This document shows, piece by piece, positions 1,407 to 47,682 of a stretch of 50,671 nucleotides of DNA. The stretch spans positions 1-50,671 of the forward strand of contig CAYSSS010000004.1 in the NCBI GenBank assembly GCA_964433975.1. The letters run 5' to 3'. The DNA comes from an uncultured Planctomycetia bacterium. Lineage in GTDB: Bacteria; Omnitrophota; Gorgyraeia; 2-01-FULL-45-10. The number at the start of each line of letters is the position of its first letter. The stretch's first letter is position 1. Made by a program: the position numbers and the translations under genes. The notes beneath the pieces were generated by a model, which saw only the letters and a program-made list of their open reading frames with translations, was not told the origin of the DNA and searched no databases.

Positions 1407-1443
1407 TAAAGAGGCGCTTCGAAAGAGGCGCCTCTTTATTATT
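1405..1443 (+). terminator. Intrinsic terminator after rnpB, possibly bidirectional
   Basis: AATAAAGAGGCGCTTC-GAAA-GAGGCGCCTCTTTATT hairpin with T-rich 3' side and A-rich 5' side. Confidence 0.85.
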
Positions 1444-1453
1444 CTTCAGAGAT

Positions 1454-1632
1454 GGCGGACCTTGCGAGGGCCGCCTTTCGCGGGCGTCCCGCCATATTAG
1501 GCATATGGTGGGACTCGACAAAATTTTTACAAAAATTTAACTTCTTTCAGGAATTTAAATTTTTAGCTATACCGCCACAATGTGTAAAAATTTTGTAACG
1601 CCGCTTCAGGCGTTTCCCTCGCAAGGTCCGCC
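1454..1632 (+). repeat. Structured dispersed element, copy A (179 nt)
   Basis: Perfect 17-bp terminal inverted repeat (1454-1470/1616-1632) plus internal hairpins. Homologous to 1716-1913 (-) and 44544-44730 (+). Confidence 0.85.
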
Positions 1633-1715
1633 CGATGTAACAAATCAAATAAAACTTTTCTGTTCTAGAATAATAGGGGTCAGGCGTTTTTAGGTAGGTA
1701 TCTGACGCTTATTGA

Positions 1716-1913
1716 ACAGGCGGGCCTCGCGGGGCGTTGCCGAAGCGGCGTTACAAATTTTGATACATTATGGCAATCTAGAAAGGCCGGACAAACTGCT
1801 CAAGCTATGGATGGTTTGCAGGTTGGACGGACATCAAAATTTGTCTGAATAAATTGGTATGCCTAATCCAATTTATGTCCACTGAGGCAACGCCCCGCGA
1901 GGCCTCAGCCTGT
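1716..1913 (-). repeat. Structured dispersed element, copy B (inverted)
   Basis: Perfect 19-bp inverted repeat (1723-1741/1886-1904). The reverse complement shares GGACATAAATT, TAGGCAT, GACAAA and TAACGCCGCTTC with copies A and/or C. Confidence 0.8.
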
Positions 1914-1996
1914 GATTGAAATATCCCGAGAATTTTCAGGCAGGACCCGCAATCAATTAAGCATAGAAACAGAAAAGTTTTTAATAACCAATACGC

Positions 1997-7248: not shown

Positions 7249-8606
7249 AGATAAGCGAGATGCTTAAAGCGACCGCGGGCAGGTTGATATCGGGCTATCC
7301 AGGTTCCGATATAGACCCGGCCGCCTTCTCGACCGACTCCAGGACGATAGGAGAGGGAGGATTCTTCATTCCCGTGAAAGGCGCTAATTTTAACGGCGAG
7401 GAGTTTGTAGAAGACGCCTTAAAGAACGGCGCCGCGGGCGCGTTTGTTACGGATAATACCGCATATAGTAGTATGCGCGGAAAGATAATAATAAAGGCCA
7501 AAGAGACCACCCGTGCGTTGCAAGATTTGGCCTATTATCACAGGATGAGGTTTAAAGTTCCTATCGTAGGAGTTACGGGATCCAACGGCAAGACTACCGT
7601 GAAGGATATGATCGCGGGGGTACTCTCATCGAAATTCAATGTGCTGAAGAACGAAGGCACTAAGAATAATCATATAGGAGTTCCGCTGACGCTTTTGAAG
7701 CTCAACGATTCTCACGACATCTGTGTTATAGAGATGGGCACGAGCCATCAGGGCGAAATACGTCTTCTCGCCGGCATCGCTTCTCCGACTATAGCCGTGA
7801 TCACCAACATAGGTCCGTCCCACCTGGAATTCCTTAAGGATATTAAAGGTGTTTTTACGGCAAAGAGAGAGATACTGACAGCGCTCGACAGGGACTCCAT
7901 GGCGATCCTGAACGGCGATGACGAGTACCTGGGAACGGTAAAGAGCAAGGTCTTCAAGATTATGAGGTTCGGTTTTAACGCCGGCAACGATTTTCAGGCC
8001 TCAGGAGTCTCGGCCGCGGGCTCCAAAATAAGATTCACCTTGAATGAAAGATCGCCGTTTGTATTGAATCTCCTGGGCCGGCATAACGTATACAATGCTA
8101 TGGCGGCGATAGCGGTCGCCTATAATTTCGATATAAGCTACATGGAGACTAAGAAAGCCCTATCGGAATACCTGCCCGCCAATATGCGGCTTAATGCCAG
8201 GCAGGTGGGGGACGTTACCGTCATAGACGATGTCTACAATTCCAACCCGTTGTCGATGAGGTTCGCCATAGAAGCGCTCAGCGGGTATCCTGCGAAGGGA
8301 AGGTGGATAGTTAGCGCGGATATGCTTGAATTGGGCCAAAGAGAAAGAGAGTTCCACGGCATGATAGGGGAGACGATAGCGCAATCGGGCCTTAGCGGGC
8401 TGATCACCTTCGGTGACCTCTCCCGGTATACGTCATCGCGCGCGCTGGAATGCGGCATGGATAAGAACAGGGTATGGCACTGTTCGGAGAGAGGCCAGGT
8501 CGCGGGTATACTAAGAAAATTCATGGAGAAGGGCGATGCCGTGCTCGTCAAGGGTTCACGGGCAATGAAGATGGAAGAAGTCATAGAAAATCTGAAAGAG
8601 AGATAG
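7245..8606 (+). CDS. murF: UDP-MurNAc-pentapeptide synthetase MurF
   Basis: GVTGSNGKTTVK, NNHIGVPLTL, DDVYNSNP, DMLELG, LVKGSR. ATGA overlap with murE. Confidence 0.96.
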   Translation: MKISEMLKATAGRLISGYPGSDIDPAAFSTDSRTIGEGGFFIPVKGANFNGEEFVEDALKNGAAGAFVTDNTAYSSMRGKIIIKAKETTRALQDLAYYHRMRFKVPIVGVTGSNGKTTVKDMIAGVLSSKFNVLKNEGTKNNHIGVPLTLLKLNDSHDICVIEMGTSHQGEIRLLAGIASPTIAVITNIGPSHLEFLKDIKGVFTAKREILTALDRDSMAILNGDDEYLGTVKSKVFKIMRFGFNAGNDFQASGVSAAGSKIRFTLNERSPFVLNLLGRHNVYNAMAAIAVAYNFDISYMETKKALSEYLPANMRLNARQVGDVTVIDDVYNSNPLSMRFAIEALSGYPAKGRWIVSADMLELGQREREFHGMIGETIAQSGLSGLITFGDLSRYTSSRALECGMDKNRVWHCSERGQVAGILRKFMEKGDAVLVKGSRAMKMEEVIENLKER

Positions 8607-30403: not shown

Positions 30404-32315
30404 AGGGCTCAACAAGCTTTTTCATTTTATTCCTATAAAGGCCAACCTTTGGATCGGGAGGTTTTTCGGCGGGATGGCTTTTGCTTTCAACAGAAAGAGG
30501 CGGCTTATAGCCTATGCCAATCTTAAGGCCGCATTCGCCAAAGAGAAGAGTCCCGAAGAGCTGCGCGCCATTACCAAAGATGTTTACGTGAACCTTTTCC
30601 AGACATTTTCCGAGATAGTGAGCCTTACCAAGGTGAACAAAGATTACGTTAATAAGTACGTGGAAGTGGTAAATATGGAGCGTATAGAGAATGCGGCCAA
30701 GTCCGGTAGGGGCACTATGCTTCTAACCGGCCATTTCGGAGATTGGGAGCTCTCCAGCCTCGTAAGCGCCATGAAGGGCTTTCCGATAACGGTCCTGGCA
30801 CGCGAGCAGAAGATGAAACGTTTAAATGAGTTATTGAACCGCTTGAGGGAGTCGAAGGGGTGTAAGGTCGTCAGAAAGGGAATGTCGACGAAAAATATCC
30901 TGAGGGAGCTTTACAAGAAGAGTATGGTTGGAATATTATCCGACCAGGATGCGGGCAAGAAGGGAACGTTTGCGAACTTTTTCGGACGCCCCACATCCGC
31001 GCATTTAGGGCCTTTCGAGATAGCAAAGCACACGGACTCCATAATACTGCCTAACTTCATAGTGCGCGTCAACGGCCCGTTTCATAAATTATATCTAGAG
31101 GATTACATCGATGTCAGGCATTCTATGGGCAGGGAGGGTTTGGTTGACGGCCTACAGAGGTATATGATGCTTCTGGAAAAATATATACGGAAGTATCCGG
31201 CACAGTGGCTGTGGCTGCACAAAAGATGGAAGTCTACGCCCAAGAGGACGGTCCTCATCCTCAATGACGGAAAGGCCGGACATCTCAATCAATCGCTTGC
31301 GGTTGCGCGCCAGATACAGAGGGCCAGGACAACCCAAAATTACGGGCTGAGCGATACCAATATAGTCGTTGCGGAAGTAAGGTATAGGAACAAATTTTTT
31401 AGGGCTCTCTTGACGTTTGCATCAATATTTGCCTCATGGAGATGTCACGGCCGCATGAGCTTTATGAAGATCTGCCTTGAGAGAGATTCTTACGAAAAGC
31501 TCATGAAGAGTTACGCCGAGTTTATAGTCTCTTGCGGCTCGAGCCTGGCACCCGTTAATATCTTCATGTCCAAGGAGAATAATGCAAGAAATATAGTCGT
31601 GATGGATCCGGCCATTCCATTCGCCCTGAAGAAGTTCAGTTTTGTCATAGCGCCGAAACACGACAGCATAAAAAAGGGCAAAAATATAATTACCACAACA
31701 CTTGCGCCGAACCTCGTGAACGCGGAATCGTTGCGACTTTCTGGGGAAGATCTTAAAAAGAACCTGAGAATCGAAAAAGATAAGATGCTGGGCCTTTTAA
31801 TCGGCGGGGACAATCCCGAATTTGAGCTTTCAGATAACCTGCTGCGGGAGGTCCTGGCCGACACGCTTAAGATATGCGAAGCTAATGATGCCGAGTTGCT
31901 TGTTACGACCTCAAGGCGTACAAATAGATCTCAGGAGTCTATAATTAAGGCTGCGTTGCAGAAAAATCCGAGATGCAGGCTCCTTGTGATCGCTAATGAA
32001 AATAACCCGGAAGGAACCCTCTCCGGGATTTTAGCATTGGGTAATGTCGTTATTGTTTCCGGCGAATCGATATCGATGATCTCAGAGGCAATAAGCTCGG
32101 GAAAGAAGACGGTGGTATTTAACCTTGAGAAGAAAAGAAGCGGCATAACTAAGCATGAGCTTGCATTGGAAAATCTCGTGAAAGAAGGTCACGTCTCCAT
32201 AGCCAGAAGAGGAGAGCTCATATCTCTGGTGGGACGTGCGCTCAAAGACGCCTCTCCCTCGAAGAAGATCTGTGATACGGACAGGATCTACGAGGCGATG
32301 CGCGCTTTGATCTAA
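30372..32315 (+). CDS. Fusion of a lipid A acyltransferase (LpxL/HtrB family) and an ELM1/GtrOC1-like putative glycosyltransferase
   Basis: N-half has HFGDWE, DQD, FFG and QWLWLHKRWK. C-half has DGKAGHLNQS, LLIGG, TTSRRT and ESISMISEA. Confidence 0.85.
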   Translation: MLDYIASILARGLNKLFHFIPIKANLWIGRFFGGMAFAFNRKRRLIAYANLKAAFAKEKSPEELRAITKDVYVNLFQTFSEIVSLTKVNKDYVNKYVEVVNMERIENAAKSGRGTMLLTGHFGDWELSSLVSAMKGFPITVLAREQKMKRLNELLNRLRESKGCKVVRKGMSTKNILRELYKKSMVGILSDQDAGKKGTFANFFGRPTSAHLGPFEIAKHTDSIILPNFIVRVNGPFHKLYLEDYIDVRHSMGREGLVDGLQRYMMLLEKYIRKYPAQWLWLHKRWKSTPKRTVLILNDGKAGHLNQSLAVARQIQRARTTQNYGLSDTNIVVAEVRYRNKFFRALLTFASIFASWRCHGRMSFMKICLERDSYEKLMKSYAEFIVSCGSSLAPVNIFMSKENNARNIVVMDPAIPFALKKFSFVIAPKHDSIKKGKNIITTTLAPNLVNAESLRLSGEDLKKNLRIEKDKMLGLLIGGDNPEFELSDNLLREVLADTLKICEANDAELLVTTSRRTNRSQESIIKAALQKNPRCRLLVIANENNPEGTLSGILALGNVVIVSGESISMISEAISSGKKTVVFNLEKKRSGITKHELALENLVKEGHVSIARRGELISLVGRALKDASPSKKICDTDRIYEAMRALI

Positions 32316-32390
32316 TCAGGTTAGTCTAATCAGATTAGTCTAGATTAGTCTAATCAGGTTAGTCTAATCAGATTAGTCTAATCTGATTAG
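32311..32390. repeat. Tandem 14-bp self-complementary repeat
   Basis: Five full units TCTAATC(AGG/AGA/TGA)TTAG plus one 10-bp truncated unit. Confidence 0.9.
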
Positions 32391-32440
32391 GGTTACGGGG
32401 TTGCGGAGATGCGGGGCTAGAGCGAACACAGGTATAACTC

Positions 32441-35649: not shown

Positions 35650-36424
35650 GAAGGGGCTTCTTTTATCCGGCGCAGCCATTCTCTTAGTACTTATATCGCT
35701 CGTTTACTACGTAGGTCTGAGCTCGAGTTCGGTCGTGCCGGTATTGATGTACCATTCCTTCCAAGCTGAAGAAGATAAGTTGATACCCTATGTGTCGCCC
35801 GATATATTCGCCCATCAGATGAAATTTCTGGCAAAGCATCATTACAACGTCGTGGGGCCCGATAAGGTTATCGCCTACATGACAGGAATTGAGAAGATGC
35901 CGGCAAAGACCGTAATCATCACCGCGGATGACGGGTACTATAATTTTTATTCGAACGCTTATCCGGTATTGAAAAAGTATAACCTGCCGGCGACATTTTT
36001 TATAGTTACAAACAGGATAGGAGAGAAAGGCTATTTGGGCTGGAAAGAACTAAGCGAGATGTCGGATTCCGGCCTTATAACTATAGGCAGCCATACAAAA
36101 TCACATCCCTGGATACCTTCTGTATCCATAAATGACCGGAAGCTTTGGGACGAGCTGGCAGGTTCCAAAGAGGTCCTGGAAAAAGGATTGGGTAAGAGGG
36201 TAGATTTTATATGCTATCCGAACGGCGGTTTTAACGATCTGGCCAAAGAGACTGCAAAGAGAGCCGGTTATAAAGGGGCCTTTACGACCAACCCGGTTCG
36301 GAAGAGCGGCATAAACGATATCTACGCCATAAGGCGTATAAAGATGTCTTCATCATCCGTAAGTCCGATCATCCTTTGGGGCAAGATATCCAGGTGGTAT
36401 GCATGGTTCAAGGAGCGCAGATGA
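35636..36424 (+). CDS. Polysaccharide deacetylase (NodB/CE4), membrane-anchored
   Basis: PVLMYH, TADDGY, GSHTKSH, YPNG, and an N-terminal TM. Confidence 0.9.
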   Translation: MRNVKKGLLLSGAAILLVLISLVYYVGLSSSSVVPVLMYHSFQAEEDKLIPYVSPDIFAHQMKFLAKHHYNVVGPDKVIAYMTGIEKMPAKTVIITADDGYYNFYSNAYPVLKKYNLPATFFIVTNRIGEKGYLGWKELSEMSDSGLITIGSHTKSHPWIPSVSINDRKLWDELAGSKEVLEKGLGKRVDFICYPNGGFNDLAKETAKRAGYKGAFTTNPVRKSGINDIYAIRRIKMSSSSVSPIILWGKISRWYAWFKERR

Positions 36425-38428: not shown

Positions 38429-39476
38429 GAAAATAATCATCATCAGGATGGACAGGATCGGGGATGTCGTATTGTCGAGCCCCGCAATAAAGGCGGTACG
38501 AGATGCGTATCCGGATGGCCGCATAGCCGTTCTCGTCAGGCCTTACGCTCGCGGGGTCGTGGACGGCAATCCTTACATCGATGAGGTTATAACCTACGAT
38601 AAGTCAGGTAAGGAGAGGAGCTTGTTAGGAAAGATCAGGTTTATAGCCCGGATCAGGAATAGAAGATTCGATCTGGCCATTATACTCCATCCCAAGAACA
38701 GCTCTCACATAGTTACATATTTGGCGGGAATACCGGAAAGGCTCGGTTATGACAGGAAATTCGGGATCCTCCTTACGAAGAGAGTTCCGCATACAAAACA
38801 GTACGGACTGAAGCACGAGATAGATTACGCTCTCGGCCTTTTGAGATATATAGGCATCGACTCCTCGGATAAGAGGCTTCACGTACCGCTTAGCAGGTTG
38901 AGCGAGGAGAGGATGAAGGAGCTGTTCGATAAGAACGGGATCTCACAGGACGATCTGGTGATCACGGTCCACCCTGCGGCGAGCTGCCGCTCGAGAAGGT
39001 GGGCGCTGGAGCGTTTTGCGAAGACCTCTGACGCCCTTGCCGAAAAGTACGGCGCCAGGATAGTCATAATCTCCGGACCCGGTGACGATAAGATGATAGG
39101 GGATAGGGCCGCCGCGTTGATGAAGTCCAAGGCCTTAAACCTTGCAGGCAAGACTATCGTATCGGATCTTGCCAGCATATTGAGAAGGTCCCGGCTCTTG
39201 ATATCAAATGACTCCGGCCCGGTACATATATCGTGCGCTGTAGGTACACCCGTGATATCGATATTCGGCCGCAAAGACAGGGGCATCTCGCCCGAACGAT
39301 GGAGGCCTTTAGGCGATAGAGATATTGTGCTACATAAAGACGTGGGATGCGATATCTGCCTTGCGCATAACTGCAGGCTCGGATTCAAGTGTCTCGATGC
39401 GATAAGCGTCGAAGAGGTCCTCTTGGCAGCGGATAAGATATTGAAAAATCAAAGTTACTGTGGTAAGATATCGTAA
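38421..39476 (+). CDS. GT9 glycosyltransferase
   Basis: DRIGDV, RRW, NDSGPVH, IFG. Confidence 0.88.
   Translation: MNKKIIIIRMDRIGDVVLSSPAIKAVRDAYPDGRIAVLVRPYARGVVDGNPYIDEVITYDKSGKERSLLGKIRFIARIRNRRFDLAIILHPKNSSHIVTYLAGIPERLGYDRKFGILLTKRVPHTKQYGLKHEIDYALGLLRYIGIDSSDKRLHVPLSRLSEERMKELFDKNGISQDDLVITVHPAASCRSRRWALERFAKTSDALAEKYGARIVIISGPGDDKMIGDRAAALMKSKALNLAGKTIVSDLASILRRSRLLISNDSGPVHISCAVGTPVISIFGRKDRGISPERWRPLGDRDIVLHKDVGCDICLAHNCRLGFKCLDAISVEEVLLAADKILKNQSYCGKIS
39441..39469 (+). promoter_or_regulatory. Internal sigma70-type promoter for the DHS-like/hldA/kds genes
   Basis: TTGAAA, 17 bp, TAAGAT, with an extended -10 TG at 39461-39462. Confidence 0.55.
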
Positions 39477-39495
39477 CCTTAAGGACTATTAGAGT

Positions 39496-40431
39496 ATGAC
39501 AAAGCGTATAGACCTCTCAAAAATCAAGACTATACATCTCGATTCGAGAAAGTGCAAAGTCACCGTTAAGGACTTTGCGTCCCTGCCAAAGAAAGGCTCG
39601 TCGTTTAAGAGTTACTACGACTCTCTTCCTAATATACTCGCGGCCCGGAATTTCAAAGAGACCGTGGACGCTATAGTTTCCGCCGGCGCGAAGAAGAGAA
39701 TGGTGATATTCATGATGGGCGCGCACGTGATAAAGTGCGGGCTGTCGCCGATCGTTATAGACCTGATGAAGAGGGGCATTGTAAAGCATGTTGCCTTGAA
39801 CGGCGCCGGCATAATTCACGACACTGAAGTGTCGATGATAGGCAGGACGAGCGAGGATGTAGGCGAAGGGATAGTCGATGGCTCGTTCGGAATGGCCCAG
39901 GAGACGGCGTCATTCATAAACGGGGCCGTGAACTACGGGTTCAGGAACGGCATAGGTATCGGCGAAGCGGTCGGCTCGCGTATAATGAAGTCTAATTTTT
40001 CGTGCAAAGAGAAGAGCGTTCTCGCTATGGGATACAAGCTGGGAGTGCCCGTTACGGTGCATGTCGCTATAGGTACAGACATAATTCATCAGCACCCGAG
40101 CGCGAACGGCATGGCGATAGGCGAAGGCTCTCTATTGGATTTCAAGACTTTTATTTACAGCGTCTCTAAGCTGGAGAACGGCGTGGCGGTCAACATAGGA
40201 TCCGCCGTTATACTGCCGGAAGTCTTCCTGAAAGCCGTTACGGTGGCGCGCAATCTCGGGTATAAAATTCGTAAATTCACAACAGCGAACTTTGACATGA
40301 TAAGCCATTACAGGCCCCACCAGAACGTAATCTTAAGACCCACCTCTACCGGGGGCAGGGGCTATAACATCACGGGCCATCACGAGCTTATGATACCGCT
40401 TCTTTATCGTTCGATTATAGAAAAGGTTTGA
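39496..40431 (+). CDS. Conserved protein with a deoxyhypusine-synthase-like (DHS/NAD-binding) fold, function unknown
   Basis: GAHVIKCGL, NGAGIIHD, GSFGMA, HVAIGTDI, GSAVILPEVFLKA, GHHEL. Family assignment is from recall only. Confidence 0.65.
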   Translation: MTKRIDLSKIKTIHLDSRKCKVTVKDFASLPKKGSSFKSYYDSLPNILAARNFKETVDAIVSAGAKKRMVIFMMGAHVIKCGLSPIVIDLMKRGIVKHVALNGAGIIHDTEVSMIGRTSEDVGEGIVDGSFGMAQETASFINGAVNYGFRNGIGIGEAVGSRIMKSNFSCKEKSVLAMGYKLGVPVTVHVAIGTDIIHQHPSANGMAIGEGSLLDFKTFIYSVSKLENGVAVNIGSAVILPEVFLKAVTVARNLGYKIRKFTTANFDMISHYRPHQNVILRPTSTGGRGYNITGHHELMIPLLYRSIIEKV

Positions 40432-44517: not shown

Positions 44518-44543
44518 TACCCCTTAATTAATATTTTACTCCA

Positions 44544-44730
44544 GGCAGGCATCGACCTCGCGGGGCGTGCCTTTCGCGGACATAAATTTGGATTGGGCAT
44601 CCAAATTTATTCGGACAAAATTTGATAAAATTTTAACTTCTTTCAGGAATTTAAAATTTTTTCTGTATCGCCATGAGGTATCAAATTTTTTAACGCCGCT
44701 TCAGGCACCACCCCGCGAGGTCTGCCTGCC
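44544..44730 (+). repeat. Structured dispersed element, copy C (187 nt)
   Basis: Terminal stem GGCAGGCA..GACCTCGCGGGG / CCCCGCGAGGTC-TGCCTGCC. Shares TTTAACTTCTTTCAGGAATTTAAA and TAACGCCGCTTCAGGC with copy A. Confidence 0.85.
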
Positions 44731-44745
44731 ATAACCTCTATGGAA

Positions 44746-45127
44746 GCGGGCCACCGGGTATTCCGCCTGCGCCTGTCAGCGCTACAGGGCTTTGTGAGCG
44801 GCCATTAGAAATTTTTTGGCACATTGTATATGGCTAGTCGGTGTGCAAGGATTTACGTTGAGCGAATGCAGGAACTGACCGACCAACGCCCATACCGATA
44901 CAGGAACACCTTGAAACTGTATGGGCTTAAGGGAGGGAATTCCTGCAAATTCGCGAAACGTAAACCGCAGCACACGGCAAAAAATTTCGCATATACTCGC
45001 TTGGAGAAATCCCCGAGCGAACCAAATGCGGAATTTCCATACCGGTGAGCGAGGGAAATTTCAGGCCGCGAACAAAGACCTGGAGTGATGGCAGGGGGAT
45101 GTCAGTGCACACTTTGGCGGCCTCCGC
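44746..45127 (+). ncRNA. Candidate ~380-nt highly structured RNA of unknown family
   Basis: Long nested stems with G-U pairs on the + strand and two tandem GA/GA internal loops; no credible ORF. Confidence 0.5.
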
Positions 45128-45134
45128 AACAATC

Positions 45135-45163
45135 TTGACAAGCATACAGTAGTATTATATAGT
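45135..45163 (+). promoter_or_regulatory. Sigma70-type promoter of the lpxL-lptC/A-lptB unit
   Basis: TTGACA (45135-45140), 17 bp, TATAGT (45158-45163). Confidence 0.75.
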
Positions 45164-45173
45164 TATATGGCAT

Positions 45174-46067
45174 ATGAAGTATAAATACAGGAGGTACTTC
45201 CTCTATTACCTCGGAAGAGCTGCCGCATTTTTAGTATATCTGCTGCCCACTAGGGTAGCTTCAGCGATTGCCGCGTTTTTTGGCAGGTGCGCTTTTTATA
45301 TTCTTCCCGAATATAGAGATATAGCGATAGATAACCTTACTCACGCATTCGGCAGTGAAAAGAGCCCGGGCCAGATCAGGCGCATTGCCGGAAAAGTATT
45401 TGAAAACCTCGGCAGGAACGCGGCCGAGCTGATAAATTTTCCCAAGATAAATAAGGAAAATATAGACCGTTTTATAAAGATAGAAGGCATCGACGTCGTC
45501 GACGGTTCTTTCGCAAGGGGCAAAGGTACGATAATACTTGCATCCCACTTTGGTAACTGGGAGCTTCTCGGCCTGACATTTCGCGTTAAAGGTTATCCGG
45601 GTTCAACCATAGGCAGGAAGATATATTTCTATAAGTACGACAATTGGTTGAATAGCCTGAGGAGAGAACAGGATATCAATGTTATATACCGCGATGAATC
45701 CCCCAGAAAGATGCTGAAAGTATTAAAAGAGAACAAGATACTCGGCATAGTCGCAGATCAGGATGTTGATTCCGTAGAAAGCGTCTTTGTGAATTTTTTC
45801 GGACGGCCGGCCTTTACACCGGTAGGACCGGTTGTGCTGGCGCGTGCAACCGGAGCGAGCCTTGTGCCGACTTTTGTTATACGAGAGGGCGGCCACCACC
45901 GTTTTATAATAGAAAAACCGATAGAATTGGTCGATACCGGAAACAAAGAGGCCGATATAGTGACCAACACCCAGAGATGGTCGGATGTTATAGAATCTTA
46001 TATCAGGAAGTATCCAGAGCAGTGGGTCTGGATACACAAGAGATGGAAGACAAAGAAAGTCAATTGA
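45174..46067 (+). CDS. lpxL: Lipid A late acyltransferase (LpxL/HtrB family)
   Basis: HFGNWE, ADQD, FFG, PEQWVWIHKRWK. Confidence 0.9.
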   Translation: MKYKYRRYFLYYLGRAAAFLVYLLPTRVASAIAAFFGRCAFYILPEYRDIAIDNLTHAFGSEKSPGQIRRIAGKVFENLGRNAAELINFPKINKENIDRFIKIEGIDVVDGSFARGKGTIILASHFGNWELLGLTFRVKGYPGSTIGRKIYFYKYDNWLNSLRREQDINVIYRDESPRKMLKVLKENKILGIVADQDVDSVESVFVNFFGRPAFTPVGPVVLARATGASLVPTFVIREGGHHRFIIEKPIELVDTGNKEADIVTNTQRWSDVIESYIRKYPEQWVWIHKRWKTKKVN

Positions 46068-46880: not shown

Positions 46881-47603
46881 ATGCATCTATTAGAGACGAC
46901 CGGCTTGATGAAGACTTACGGCAAGAGGTGTGTGGTAGATAGCGTGGATATTAATGTCAAGAGAGGAGAAGTCGTAGGGCTTTTGGGTCCGAACGGAGCC
47001 GGCAAGACTACCACCTTTTATATGATCACGGGCCTTATAGCTCCCGATAGTGGTAGGATAATCTTTGACAGGCAGGATATAACCGGTATGCCGATGCATA
47101 TGCGCGCGCGCTCAGGTATCGGGTATCTCTCCCAGGAGCCTTCGATATTTCGGAAGCTTACGGTCGAGGAGAATATAATGGCGGTTCTCGAGACGCTGGA
47201 CTTTTCGCCTCGTGAACGCAAGAGAAGATGCGATGAGCTGTTGAACGAGCTCAAGACAACGCACCTCAGGAAGAATATGGCATATACTCTTTCAGGAGGG
47301 GAGAAGAGGCGCGTGGAGATAACCAGGGCGCTCGTCACAAATCCGATGTTTATATTACTGGATGAGCCCTTCAGCGGGATAGACCCGATAGCTGTCGGCG
47401 AATGCCAGGAGATAATAAAAGAGCTGCGGAATAAAGGATTGGGCATACTGCTAACGGATCACAACGTGAGGGAGACCCTGACCATATGCGACCGCTCCTA
47501 TCTCATGGCGGGAGGCAGGATTCTCATATCCGGGCCGAAAGAAGAGCTGATCTCGGATCCCAAGGCCAGGGAGATATATCTCGGTGAAAAATTTTCTATG
47601 TAA
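46881..47603 (+). CDS. lptB: LPS export ABC ATPase LptB
   Basis: GPNGAGKTT, YLSQEPSIFRKL, LSGGE, LLDEPF, TDHNVRETL, YLGE. Confidence 0.97.
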   Translation: MHLLETTGLMKTYGKRCVVDSVDINVKRGEVVGLLGPNGAGKTTTFYMITGLIAPDSGRIIFDRQDITGMPMHMRARSGIGYLSQEPSIFRKLTVEENIMAVLETLDFSPRERKRRCDELLNELKTTHLRKNMAYTLSGGEKRRVEITRALVTNPMFILLDEPFSGIDPIAVGECQEIIKELRNKGLGILLTDHNVRETLTICDRSYLMAGGRILISGPKEELISDPKAREIYLGEKFSM

Positions 47604-47682
47604 TGCGTGCGGAAAATTCCACGAAGTGAAATTTTTAATATGATGCGTACGGAAAATTCCACGAAGCGAAATTTTCAATGTG
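47603..47682. repeat. 40-bp tandem duplication, each unit a hairpin
   Basis: ATGCGT(G/A)CGGAAAATTCCACGAAG(T/C)GAAATTTT(T/C)AAT(A/G)TG twice, 36/40 identical. Confidence 0.85.

Follow-up and report, generated by a model that had tools for sequence, protein, structure and literature searches.

A mosaic of hairpin repeats upstream of the lpxL-like gene

The window, by which we mean the whole 50,671-nucleotide stretch of DNA that was analysed, carries an extensively paired region at positions 44746-45127 in the kdsC-lpxL spacer. The lpxL-like gene (45174-46067) is preceded by a sigma-70-type promoter at 45135-45163 on the + strand (TTGACA, 17 nt, TATAGT; 11 of 12 consensus positions). This promoter lies outside the repeats, is conserved in two related genomes (G003 and G004) and was correctly placed 7 nt downstream of the paired region in the preliminary description. 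The 380-base region itself is a mosaic of nested and adjoining non-coding hairpin repeats, not one RNA gene. Four parts can be distinguished: a foldback termed E2, a mini-element termed E3, an outer arm made of end remnants of a repeat termed E1, and a full E1, previously called copy C.

Copy C (44541-44732, + strand) is a 190-nt hairpin repeat with ~28-nt inverted ends (GGCAGG.../...CCTGCC) and an AT-rich interior. Downstream, a solo 3′ end hairpin of an E1 variant (44746-44771, + strand) makes up the 5′ half of the outermost arm. Specifically, this segment is 96% identical to E1-variant 3′ ends in three related genomes (G001:C134, G005:C73, G003:C284) and also matches the 3′ end of the C24 copy in the window's own genome. 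In contigs of runs X1 and X3, position 44748 follows directly on the body of an E1 variant, and 44735-44772 is lacking in most relatives and in a run X2 contig. The 3′ half of the outermost arm (45113-45127, - strand) is the end-hairpin remnant of a reverse-oriented E1; the orthologous spacer of G003 and G004 holds a complete reverse-oriented E1 with the same end point, just before the lpxL promoter. The arm that had been taken as part of one RNA is made, on both sides, of E1 end remnants.

E2 occupies the space between these remnants. nhmmer places the window copy at 44767-45103, and it was aligned with 36 others. The first part of E2 (44770-44988, + strand) begins with the outer stem and its tandem G-A loop, continues through an A/T helix and a variable side hairpin, and ends with the conserved core arms, the 5′ core arm being followed by a variable tip and then the 3′ core arm. 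The last part (45056-45103, + strand) provides the 3′ sides of two helices, the A/T helix and the outer stem, and in most relatives position 45056 directly follows 44988. In the window, the 67-nt E3 (44989-45055, + strand) lies between the two parts and corresponds to the third arm of the earlier fold. Of the 37 aligned E2 copies, 2 contain E3 and 35 do not. A direct repeat, AAATTT(C), borders it on the left (44982-44988) and on the right (45056-45062); the repeat is single in uninterrupted E2 and E1 homologues and doubled with E3. The proposal of a single ~380-nt RNA fails on this point, since the third arm is a separate insertion that is also found within E1 copies elsewhere.

Pairing in the region

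The pairing in 44746-45127 is real. Every helix listed in the preliminary description was located in the sequence, and its three arms all lie within the predicted fold of 44740-45135. The outer helices, GA/GA mismatches included, join 44746-44758 with 45113-45127, 44772-44778 with 45089-45095, and 44790-44803 with 45064-45077. On the + strand, 44740-45135 folds at -171.8 kcal/mol against -122.1 +/- 6.2 for shuffled sequences (z -8.08), a value that none of 100 shuffles matches; the - strand folds at -154.7 kcal/mol (z -5.44 against shuffles). The segment GAAATTTTTT (44808-44817) faces either 44979-44988 or 45053-45062. Both pairings, previously taken for two alternative folds, do exist, but the segment has two partners because AAATTT(C) is duplicated around E3.

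A search of Rfam 15 with the window and with an E3-free copy, under gathering and E-value thresholds, returned no family at threshold in the region, where the below-threshold matches are weak miRNA-type hairpins. The sole match at threshold within the window is RNase P (1040-1408). A literature search on Omnitrophota repeats and structured RNAs, extended partly beyond Omnitrophota, found no description of such elements, in agreement with the view that the element is undescribed.

E2 is a single foldback unit

Without E3, E2 measures ~260 nt (44770-44988 plus 45056-45103). Copies were gathered from the genomes of relatives, 29 public genome contigs and 53 metagenome contigs. This yielded 163 non-overlapping nhmmer hits, 86 of them near end to end, and after removal of exact duplicates 60 unique full copies of 192-338 nt. 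The arms lie at most 131 nt apart wherever both were found, and no copy carries a gene or ORF as cargo. E2 is a single unit because the outer stem is never found without the core (0 of 61 related genomes). We rejected on the same count the idea that the outer stem is a separate element invaded by the core.

An E3-free copy (L034) is in essence a single long, imperfect hairpin from which a small hairpin branches to the side. Folded as RNA, its + strand reaches -142.3 kcal/mol (z -11.7) and its - strand -127.0 (z -13.1); with DNA parameters the values are -90.3 and -75.3, so that the + strand is ~15 kcal/mol more stable with either set. E2 as a whole is an inverted repeat, whose conservation, in the 37-copy alignment and in subfamilies, is highest in the centre and lowest at the ends. 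The termini, the least conserved part, differ between subfamilies. The diverged metagenome subfamilies have almost invariant central arms surrounded by stems that covary, and keep their loops purine-purine at the same sites (GA/GA, GGA/GGA and GAA/GAA). A 'mini' E2 subfamily of ~130-170 nt, with another outer stem and the same core and purine loops, was also observed on metagenome contigs (L118, L149, L150, L156, L159, L160, L162, L165 and L170).

Covariation and strand asymmetry

The E2 hairpin is maintained by compensatory changes, as shown by a MAFFT alignment of 37 copies in which 52 pairs were compared with 500 shuffles. Standard pairs fill 98.2% of cells, against 90.6% in shuffles, and 21 of the 52 pairs have changed on both sides, against 12.2 in shuffles; no shuffle of the 500 attains the observed pairing or covariation values. 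Sliding the partner by 1-3 columns lowers the pairing to 27-52%, and RNAalifold agrees with the covariation count. Compensatory changes occur in 6 of the 7 E2 helices, although the counts overstate independent events because the copies are related. The expected combination of strong structure with covariation among homologues holds for E2, the main element.

Across 60 copies and 54 pairs, 3032 cells are Watson-Crick, 63 G-U, 22 A-C and 68 other. The strand bias of G-U pairs that had been pointed out survives in these totals (63 cells versus 22), but it is weak per pair, with 26 pairs having any G-U and 14 any A-C (p 0.08), the relatedness of the copies inflates the cell counts, and G-U accounts for only ~2% of cells. 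The loops are more telling. Purines make up 77% of the unpaired positions on the 5′ arm and 67% of those on the 3′ arm, where a strand-symmetric palindrome would mirror the 77% as ~23%; paired columns are 42% (5′ arm) and 58% (3′ arm) purine. Because the loops are purine-rich on both arms and purine-purine loops are kept in the subfamilies, it is on the + strand that the selected fold lies, whether the molecule is RNA or single-stranded DNA.

E1 and E3 outside the spacer

The window's own genome contains 26 copies or pieces of E1, and the depth of E1 is 20-40x that of flanking genes in Logan contigs from four DNA runs. Two further copies lie in the window, copy A at 1432-1650 (+ strand) and copy B at 1701-1929 (- strand). 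These two opposite copies directly follow the RNase P RNA gene (1040-1408), so the E1 family is also found behind an essential RNA gene.

E3, with doubled AAATTT, also sits inside E1 copies (L153; L079, in G004; and G000:C101), and AAATTT(C) is doubled around E3 at three kinds of target. In a related genome (G005:C79:5569-6899; L171, L042), a truncated E2 with an E3 variant is directly preceded by an ORF for a reverse transcriptase of the group II intron type, a configuration that may represent an intron landing in an E2 copy.

Where E1 and E2 adjoin, their polarity is fixed: E1 lies 5′ of E2 on the same strand in every case (13 versus 0), and among the 60 unique E2 copies none has a same-strand E1 downstream. 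A terminal CCTGCC is common to E1 and E2 in C13 and C21. This polarity is consistent with oriented insertion beside a hairpin foot, or with movement of an E1-E2 composite. The suggestion that the paired region forms one unit with copy C is borne out only sometimes: a same-strand E1 lies upstream, within 45 nt, in 11 of the 60 unique E2 copies.

Copy number, distribution and mobility

The window's own assembly (1.87 Mb, 127 contigs) contains nine E2 matches. Because five of these lie at contig ends (C21, C13, C110 and two on C37), E2 is an assembly-breaking repeat; its depth in contigs of run X1 is ~2-8x that of its flanks. Matches occur in 24 of 61 related genomes. The core motif was found on 29 public contigs, 24 labelled Omnitrophota and the other 5 Planctomycetia or Bacteroidales. 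In a phylum-wide sample of 401 genomes, its 18-nt form occurs in 10, with 0 control matches, and the positives comprise 7 of 17 genomes in the window's family and 3 of 60 in one other, with 0 in other classes. No match to E2 was obtained in viral contigs, plasmids or phages.

E2 multiplies within genomes and comes and goes at given gene junctions. The nearest relative of a copy is in the same genome for 28 of 30 copies, against 2.6 expected by chance. The kdsC-lpxL spacers of three congeners (G001, G003 and G004) carry other repeat combinations and no E2. A check for empty sites at this junction had been proposed: the three spacers are empty of E2, but other repeats fill them. Conversely, the window has no E2 at 39447-39495, where G003 and G005 carry E2 and other repeats. 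No E2 insertion could be matched to a clean empty site, and at 39447-39495 the whole spacer differs. Just outside both ends of E2, several subfamilies have AAATTT-containing sequence.

The interval 39447-39495 is the spacer before the first gene of an hldE-kdsB-kdsA-kdsD-kdsC cluster. It measures 49 nt in the window and 600-950 nt in L040 (G005) and L036 (G003), where it holds E1 or E4, a further repeat family, plus E2; more distant metagenome contigs also have E2 before this cluster.

Gene context and orientation

All E2 copies seen are intergenic, and the neighbours at 98 E2 sites are housekeeping genes, among which no recurrent gene was found that could be an autonomous partner. Orientation was counted with simple gene calls at 75 unique sites. 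Relative to E2, the downstream gene is co-oriented in 35 cases and opposite in 25; for the upstream gene the numbers are 20 and 18. Thirty copies have a gene on either side; 14 of them run in the sense direction of both neighbours and 10 run antisense to both. A cruder count had pointed to a downstream-gene bias (30/42), which disappeared with better gene calls and more copies (35/60).

On the + strand of the window copy, no promoter was found before E2 and no terminator after it. With neither signal, and with an orientation that is random relative to its neighbours, the region does not behave as the ncRNA gene that was first proposed. One gene stands out: in 5 of 5 lineages, orthologues of the window gene at 39496-40430 are preceded by an E2 in the same orientation, which could reflect a hot spot or retention for a cis function.

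Candidate mobilising enzymes

Homologues of Y1/HUH transposases (Y1_Tnp) occur in 51 of 61 relatives and in 5 of 5 E2-rich genomes, with no enrichment alongside E2 (21 of 24 E2-positive versus 30 of 37 E2-negative genomes). Three E2-positive genomes (G001, G027 and G052) have no visible Y1 homologue. At the flanks of seven Y1 genes, four in G000 and the others in G005, G006 and G009, E1 and E2 are absent and other short repeats are present instead; for four of these flanks, an nhmmer scan gave no E1 or E2 even at E <= 10.

The other enzyme families that we considered are scarce. In the five E2-rich genomes, IS110 (PF01548) and TnpB (PF07282) are each absent (0/5), and of the DDE families DDE_3 is found in 0/5, rve in 1/5 and DDE_Tnp_1 in 1/5. 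The reverse transcriptase domain RVT_1 occurs in 14 of 61 relatives and in none of the E2-rich genomes G002, G003, G006, G009 and G010. Movement through RNA, which had been entertained for the region, is disfavoured, since a reverse transcriptase occurs in just 6 of the 24 genomes with the element. The genome has no dispersed IS-like repeat of at least 700 nt, and no longer E2 relative with a transposase gene was present among the loci searched.

Some of the Y1 genes have surroundings of their own. Three paralogous genes share an upstream promoter-like block (G000:C19:4614-4662; C28:7527-7580 and 8225-8302; C36:13796-13861), and at least one of them is bracketed by inverted GGGGACGTTTCAC-type repeats. 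These paralogues resemble RAYT or IS200 units that have ends of their own. The window also contains tandem 14-nt repeats (TAATCAGATTAG-type) at 32297-32394, and repeats of the same type flank a Y1 homologue on G000:C71 (5129-5211, 5765-5797), which suggests a separate repeat-plus-HUH system.

Nature of E2 and its relatives

The region is probably an intergenic mosaic of interspersed, non-coding repeats, centred on E2, a ~260-nt non-autonomous foldback. The best reading of E1, E2 and E3 is that they are non-autonomous mobile repeats of the ERIC/REPIN/MITE kind. Within this mosaic, E3 has inserted into E2 at an AAATTT site. The hairpin would be the form recognised for propagation, and E2 would be read on the + strand only, as single-stranded nucleic acid; in the simplest form, this would be single-stranded DNA during transposition or replication, with the enzyme supplied in trans. 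HUH/Y1 (RAYT-like) transposases would be the best, if unproven, candidates, and recognition of the + strand hairpin by a trans-acting HUH-type enzyme is the version that we prefer by elimination. PATEs, the non-autonomous elements of IS200/IS605 type, have strand-specific hairpins that are recognised as single-stranded DNA, and they insert in a set orientation beside a short target without duplicating it; hints consistent with this type are the + strand asymmetry, the position of E2 3′ of same-strand E1 (13 versus 0) and the presence of Y1. Where a copy happens to be co-transcribed, the mRNA of the neighbouring gene would incidentally gain a stable hairpin.

Several findings count against the mobile-repeat reading. 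Y1 genes and E2 are linked neither by co-occurrence nor by flanks, clean empty sites for E2 are missing, the G-U excess is weak per pair, the E2 before orthologues of the gene at 39496-40430 may be retained for a cis function, and the ends of E2 are least and its centre most conserved, the reverse of a classical terminal-inverted-repeat transposon; the centre-conserved pattern would also suit a functional RNA. The direct repeat that flanks E3 suggests a staggered-cut mechanism, and HUH enzymes do not use staggered cuts.

We think it unlikely that E2 represents a family of functional structured RNAs, be it a multi-copy cis-acting module or a small RNA gene, whose spread as a repeat is secondary. 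The conserved core and G-A-rich loops would then bind a protein or form a tertiary fold, in line with a nearly invariant core beside outer stems and a tip that covary, loops that are purine-rich on both arms of one strand only, tandem G-A loops retained across subfamilies, more G-U than A-C cells, and the co-oriented E2 before orthologues of one gene in 5/5 lineages. Yet the window copy has no + strand promoter or terminator, orientation is unbiased (35 versus 25; 20 versus 18) with 10/30 copies antisense to both genes, G-U pairs fill ~2% of cells, and both strands fold at z < -11. Congeners also differ in the presence of E2 at the same junction, the copies cluster by genome, and Rfam offers no match. 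More speculatively, and at similarly low confidence, E2 may be more than selfish DNA: a widespread structured nucleic acid of Omnitrophota, active on one strand only, with a conserved protein-binding core of tandem G-A loops and invariant central arms. It would then be either a new class of mobile structured RNA or the recognition hairpin of a so far unrecognised single-strand mobilisation system, to which the phylum's other mosaic repeats could also be traced.

We consider it quite improbable that E2 and E3 are ordinary MITEs, moved as double-stranded DNA by the cut-and-paste action of a DDE transposase that recognises their inverted ends, with AAATTT as the duplicated target. AAATTT(C) does flank E3 and is single-copy in uninterrupted homologues, AAATTT-containing sequence extends beyond both E2 ends in several subfamilies, and size and lack of coding capacity fit the portrayal of MITEs in PMC3184786. 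Against it, the loci searched gave no longer, transposase-bearing relative, the genome lacks a dispersed IS-like repeat of at least 700 nt, DDE families are rare in E2-rich genomes (rve 1/5, DDE_Tnp_1 1/5, DDE_3 0/5), the E2 termini are its least conserved part, and strand asymmetry in the loops is unexpected for a double-stranded substrate. Spread via an RNA intermediate and reverse transcription would agree with a strand-specific fold, and the AT-rich AAATTT flanks might recall target-primed insertion; with no promoter, and with RVT_1 in 14/61 relatives, 6/24 genomes with the element and none of G002, G003, G006, G009 and G010, it is highly improbable. A chance palindrome or an assembly artefact is harder still to credit: repeats at contig ends can be mis-joined, but more than 60 distinct copies from many assemblies and metagenomes share one architecture, separate run X2 contigs cover parts of the E2 region, and the fold z-scores are -8 to -14.

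Comparison with known repeat families

Mobile repeats of the kind favoured here have several well-known counterparts. ERIC is presented, in PMC3184786, as a ~127-bp MITE-class repeat able to change the fate of mRNA. Like E2, ERIC/IRU elements of Enterobacteriaceae are non-coding imperfect intergenic palindromes, multi-copy, inserted in either orientation and folding into a long hairpin; both are co-transcribed by chance, and neither has a known transposase. Longer ERIC forms contain ~70-bp insertions at fixed internal sites, resembling E3 in E2. The two share no sequence relation, however, and E2 is twice as long and restricted to Omnitrophota. Unlike ERIC, E2 includes a side hairpin, and one of its strands bears conserved purine-purine loops; the TA flanks of ERIC-type repeats are not seen at E2.

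The build of the spacer recalls BIMEs, which the same paper describes as mosaics of different hairpin modules in one spacer (PMC3184786); that of the window clusters E1, an E1-end remnant, E2 containing E3, and another E1-end remnant. E1 has the layout of a REPIN, in which a spacer is enclosed by two end hairpins in inverted orientation. Resemblance to the REP/RAYT system extends to the Y1 homologues in 51/61 relatives, and a strand-specific hairpin would suit a single-strand enzyme. Yet REPs are G+C-rich palindromes, single or in inverted doublets, that measure 20-40 nt against ~260 nt for E2, so that only the ~25-nt end hairpins of E1 are REP-sized, and the conserved 5′ tetranucleotide tag of REPs was not found here. 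A RAYT gene is flanked by its own REPs, whereas the Y1 flanks examined are without E1 and E2, and Y1 presence does not track E2 presence, unlike in the REP/RAYT system.

Correia/NEMIS elements of Neisseria, RUP and Nezha MITEs resemble E2 as small, non-autonomous intergenic inverted repeats of variable location that are sometimes nested. E2 is likewise small, non-coding, multi-copy and variable in location between relatives, and the direct repeat flanking E3 resembles a MITE target duplication. It differs from MITEs in that no autonomous partner or target duplication was found for E2 and its ends are less conserved than its centre. E2 falls outside the strict definitions of MITE, REP and ERIC alike, though it behaves like them. 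The Rickettsia palindromic elements (RPE) are hairpin repeats that spread in one small-genome lineage without a recognisable transposase; RPE often lie in frame inside genes, whereas the E2 copies seen are all intergenic. Among structured RNAs, 6S, HEARO/omega RNA and the IS110 bridge RNA have a similar size range and extensive pairing, and some are multi-copy and tied to mobile elements. E2 differs from 6S, omega and bridge RNAs in having no Rfam match and no promoter, with IS110 (0/5) and TnpB (0/5) missing from E2-rich genomes, and it does not co-occur with reverse transcriptase as an RNA borne by a retron, group II intron or SINE-like retroelement would (RVT_1 in 6/24).

E1, E2 and E3 are undescribed repeat families of a familiar selfish-DNA kind, and the fold of E2 is unusually conserved and strand-specific. 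Such repeats break Omnitrophota assemblies and mimic large structured RNAs, misleading RNA-discovery screens; for paired, RNA-like intergenic matches in this phylum, copy number should be tested first. Annotation would benefit from a catalogue of E1, E2 and E3, which could also supply strain markers. E2 combines a conserved centre and one-strand purine loops with genomes in which the classical transposases tested are rare, and finding its mover could show how hairpin repeats spread in small, gene-dense uncultivated genomes.

Further repeats

Two other repeat types were encountered. E4, a family of ~250 nt with ends AAACCTAAGCC / GGCTTAGGTTT, often shares spacers with E1 and E2; examples are L008 (G000:C21) at 1540-1830, L077 at 1040-1300, and L036. 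Just after the lptB-like gene, the window has two tandem 40-nt direct repeats that are 85% alike (47589-47668), and a weaker third copy lies at 36202-36241.
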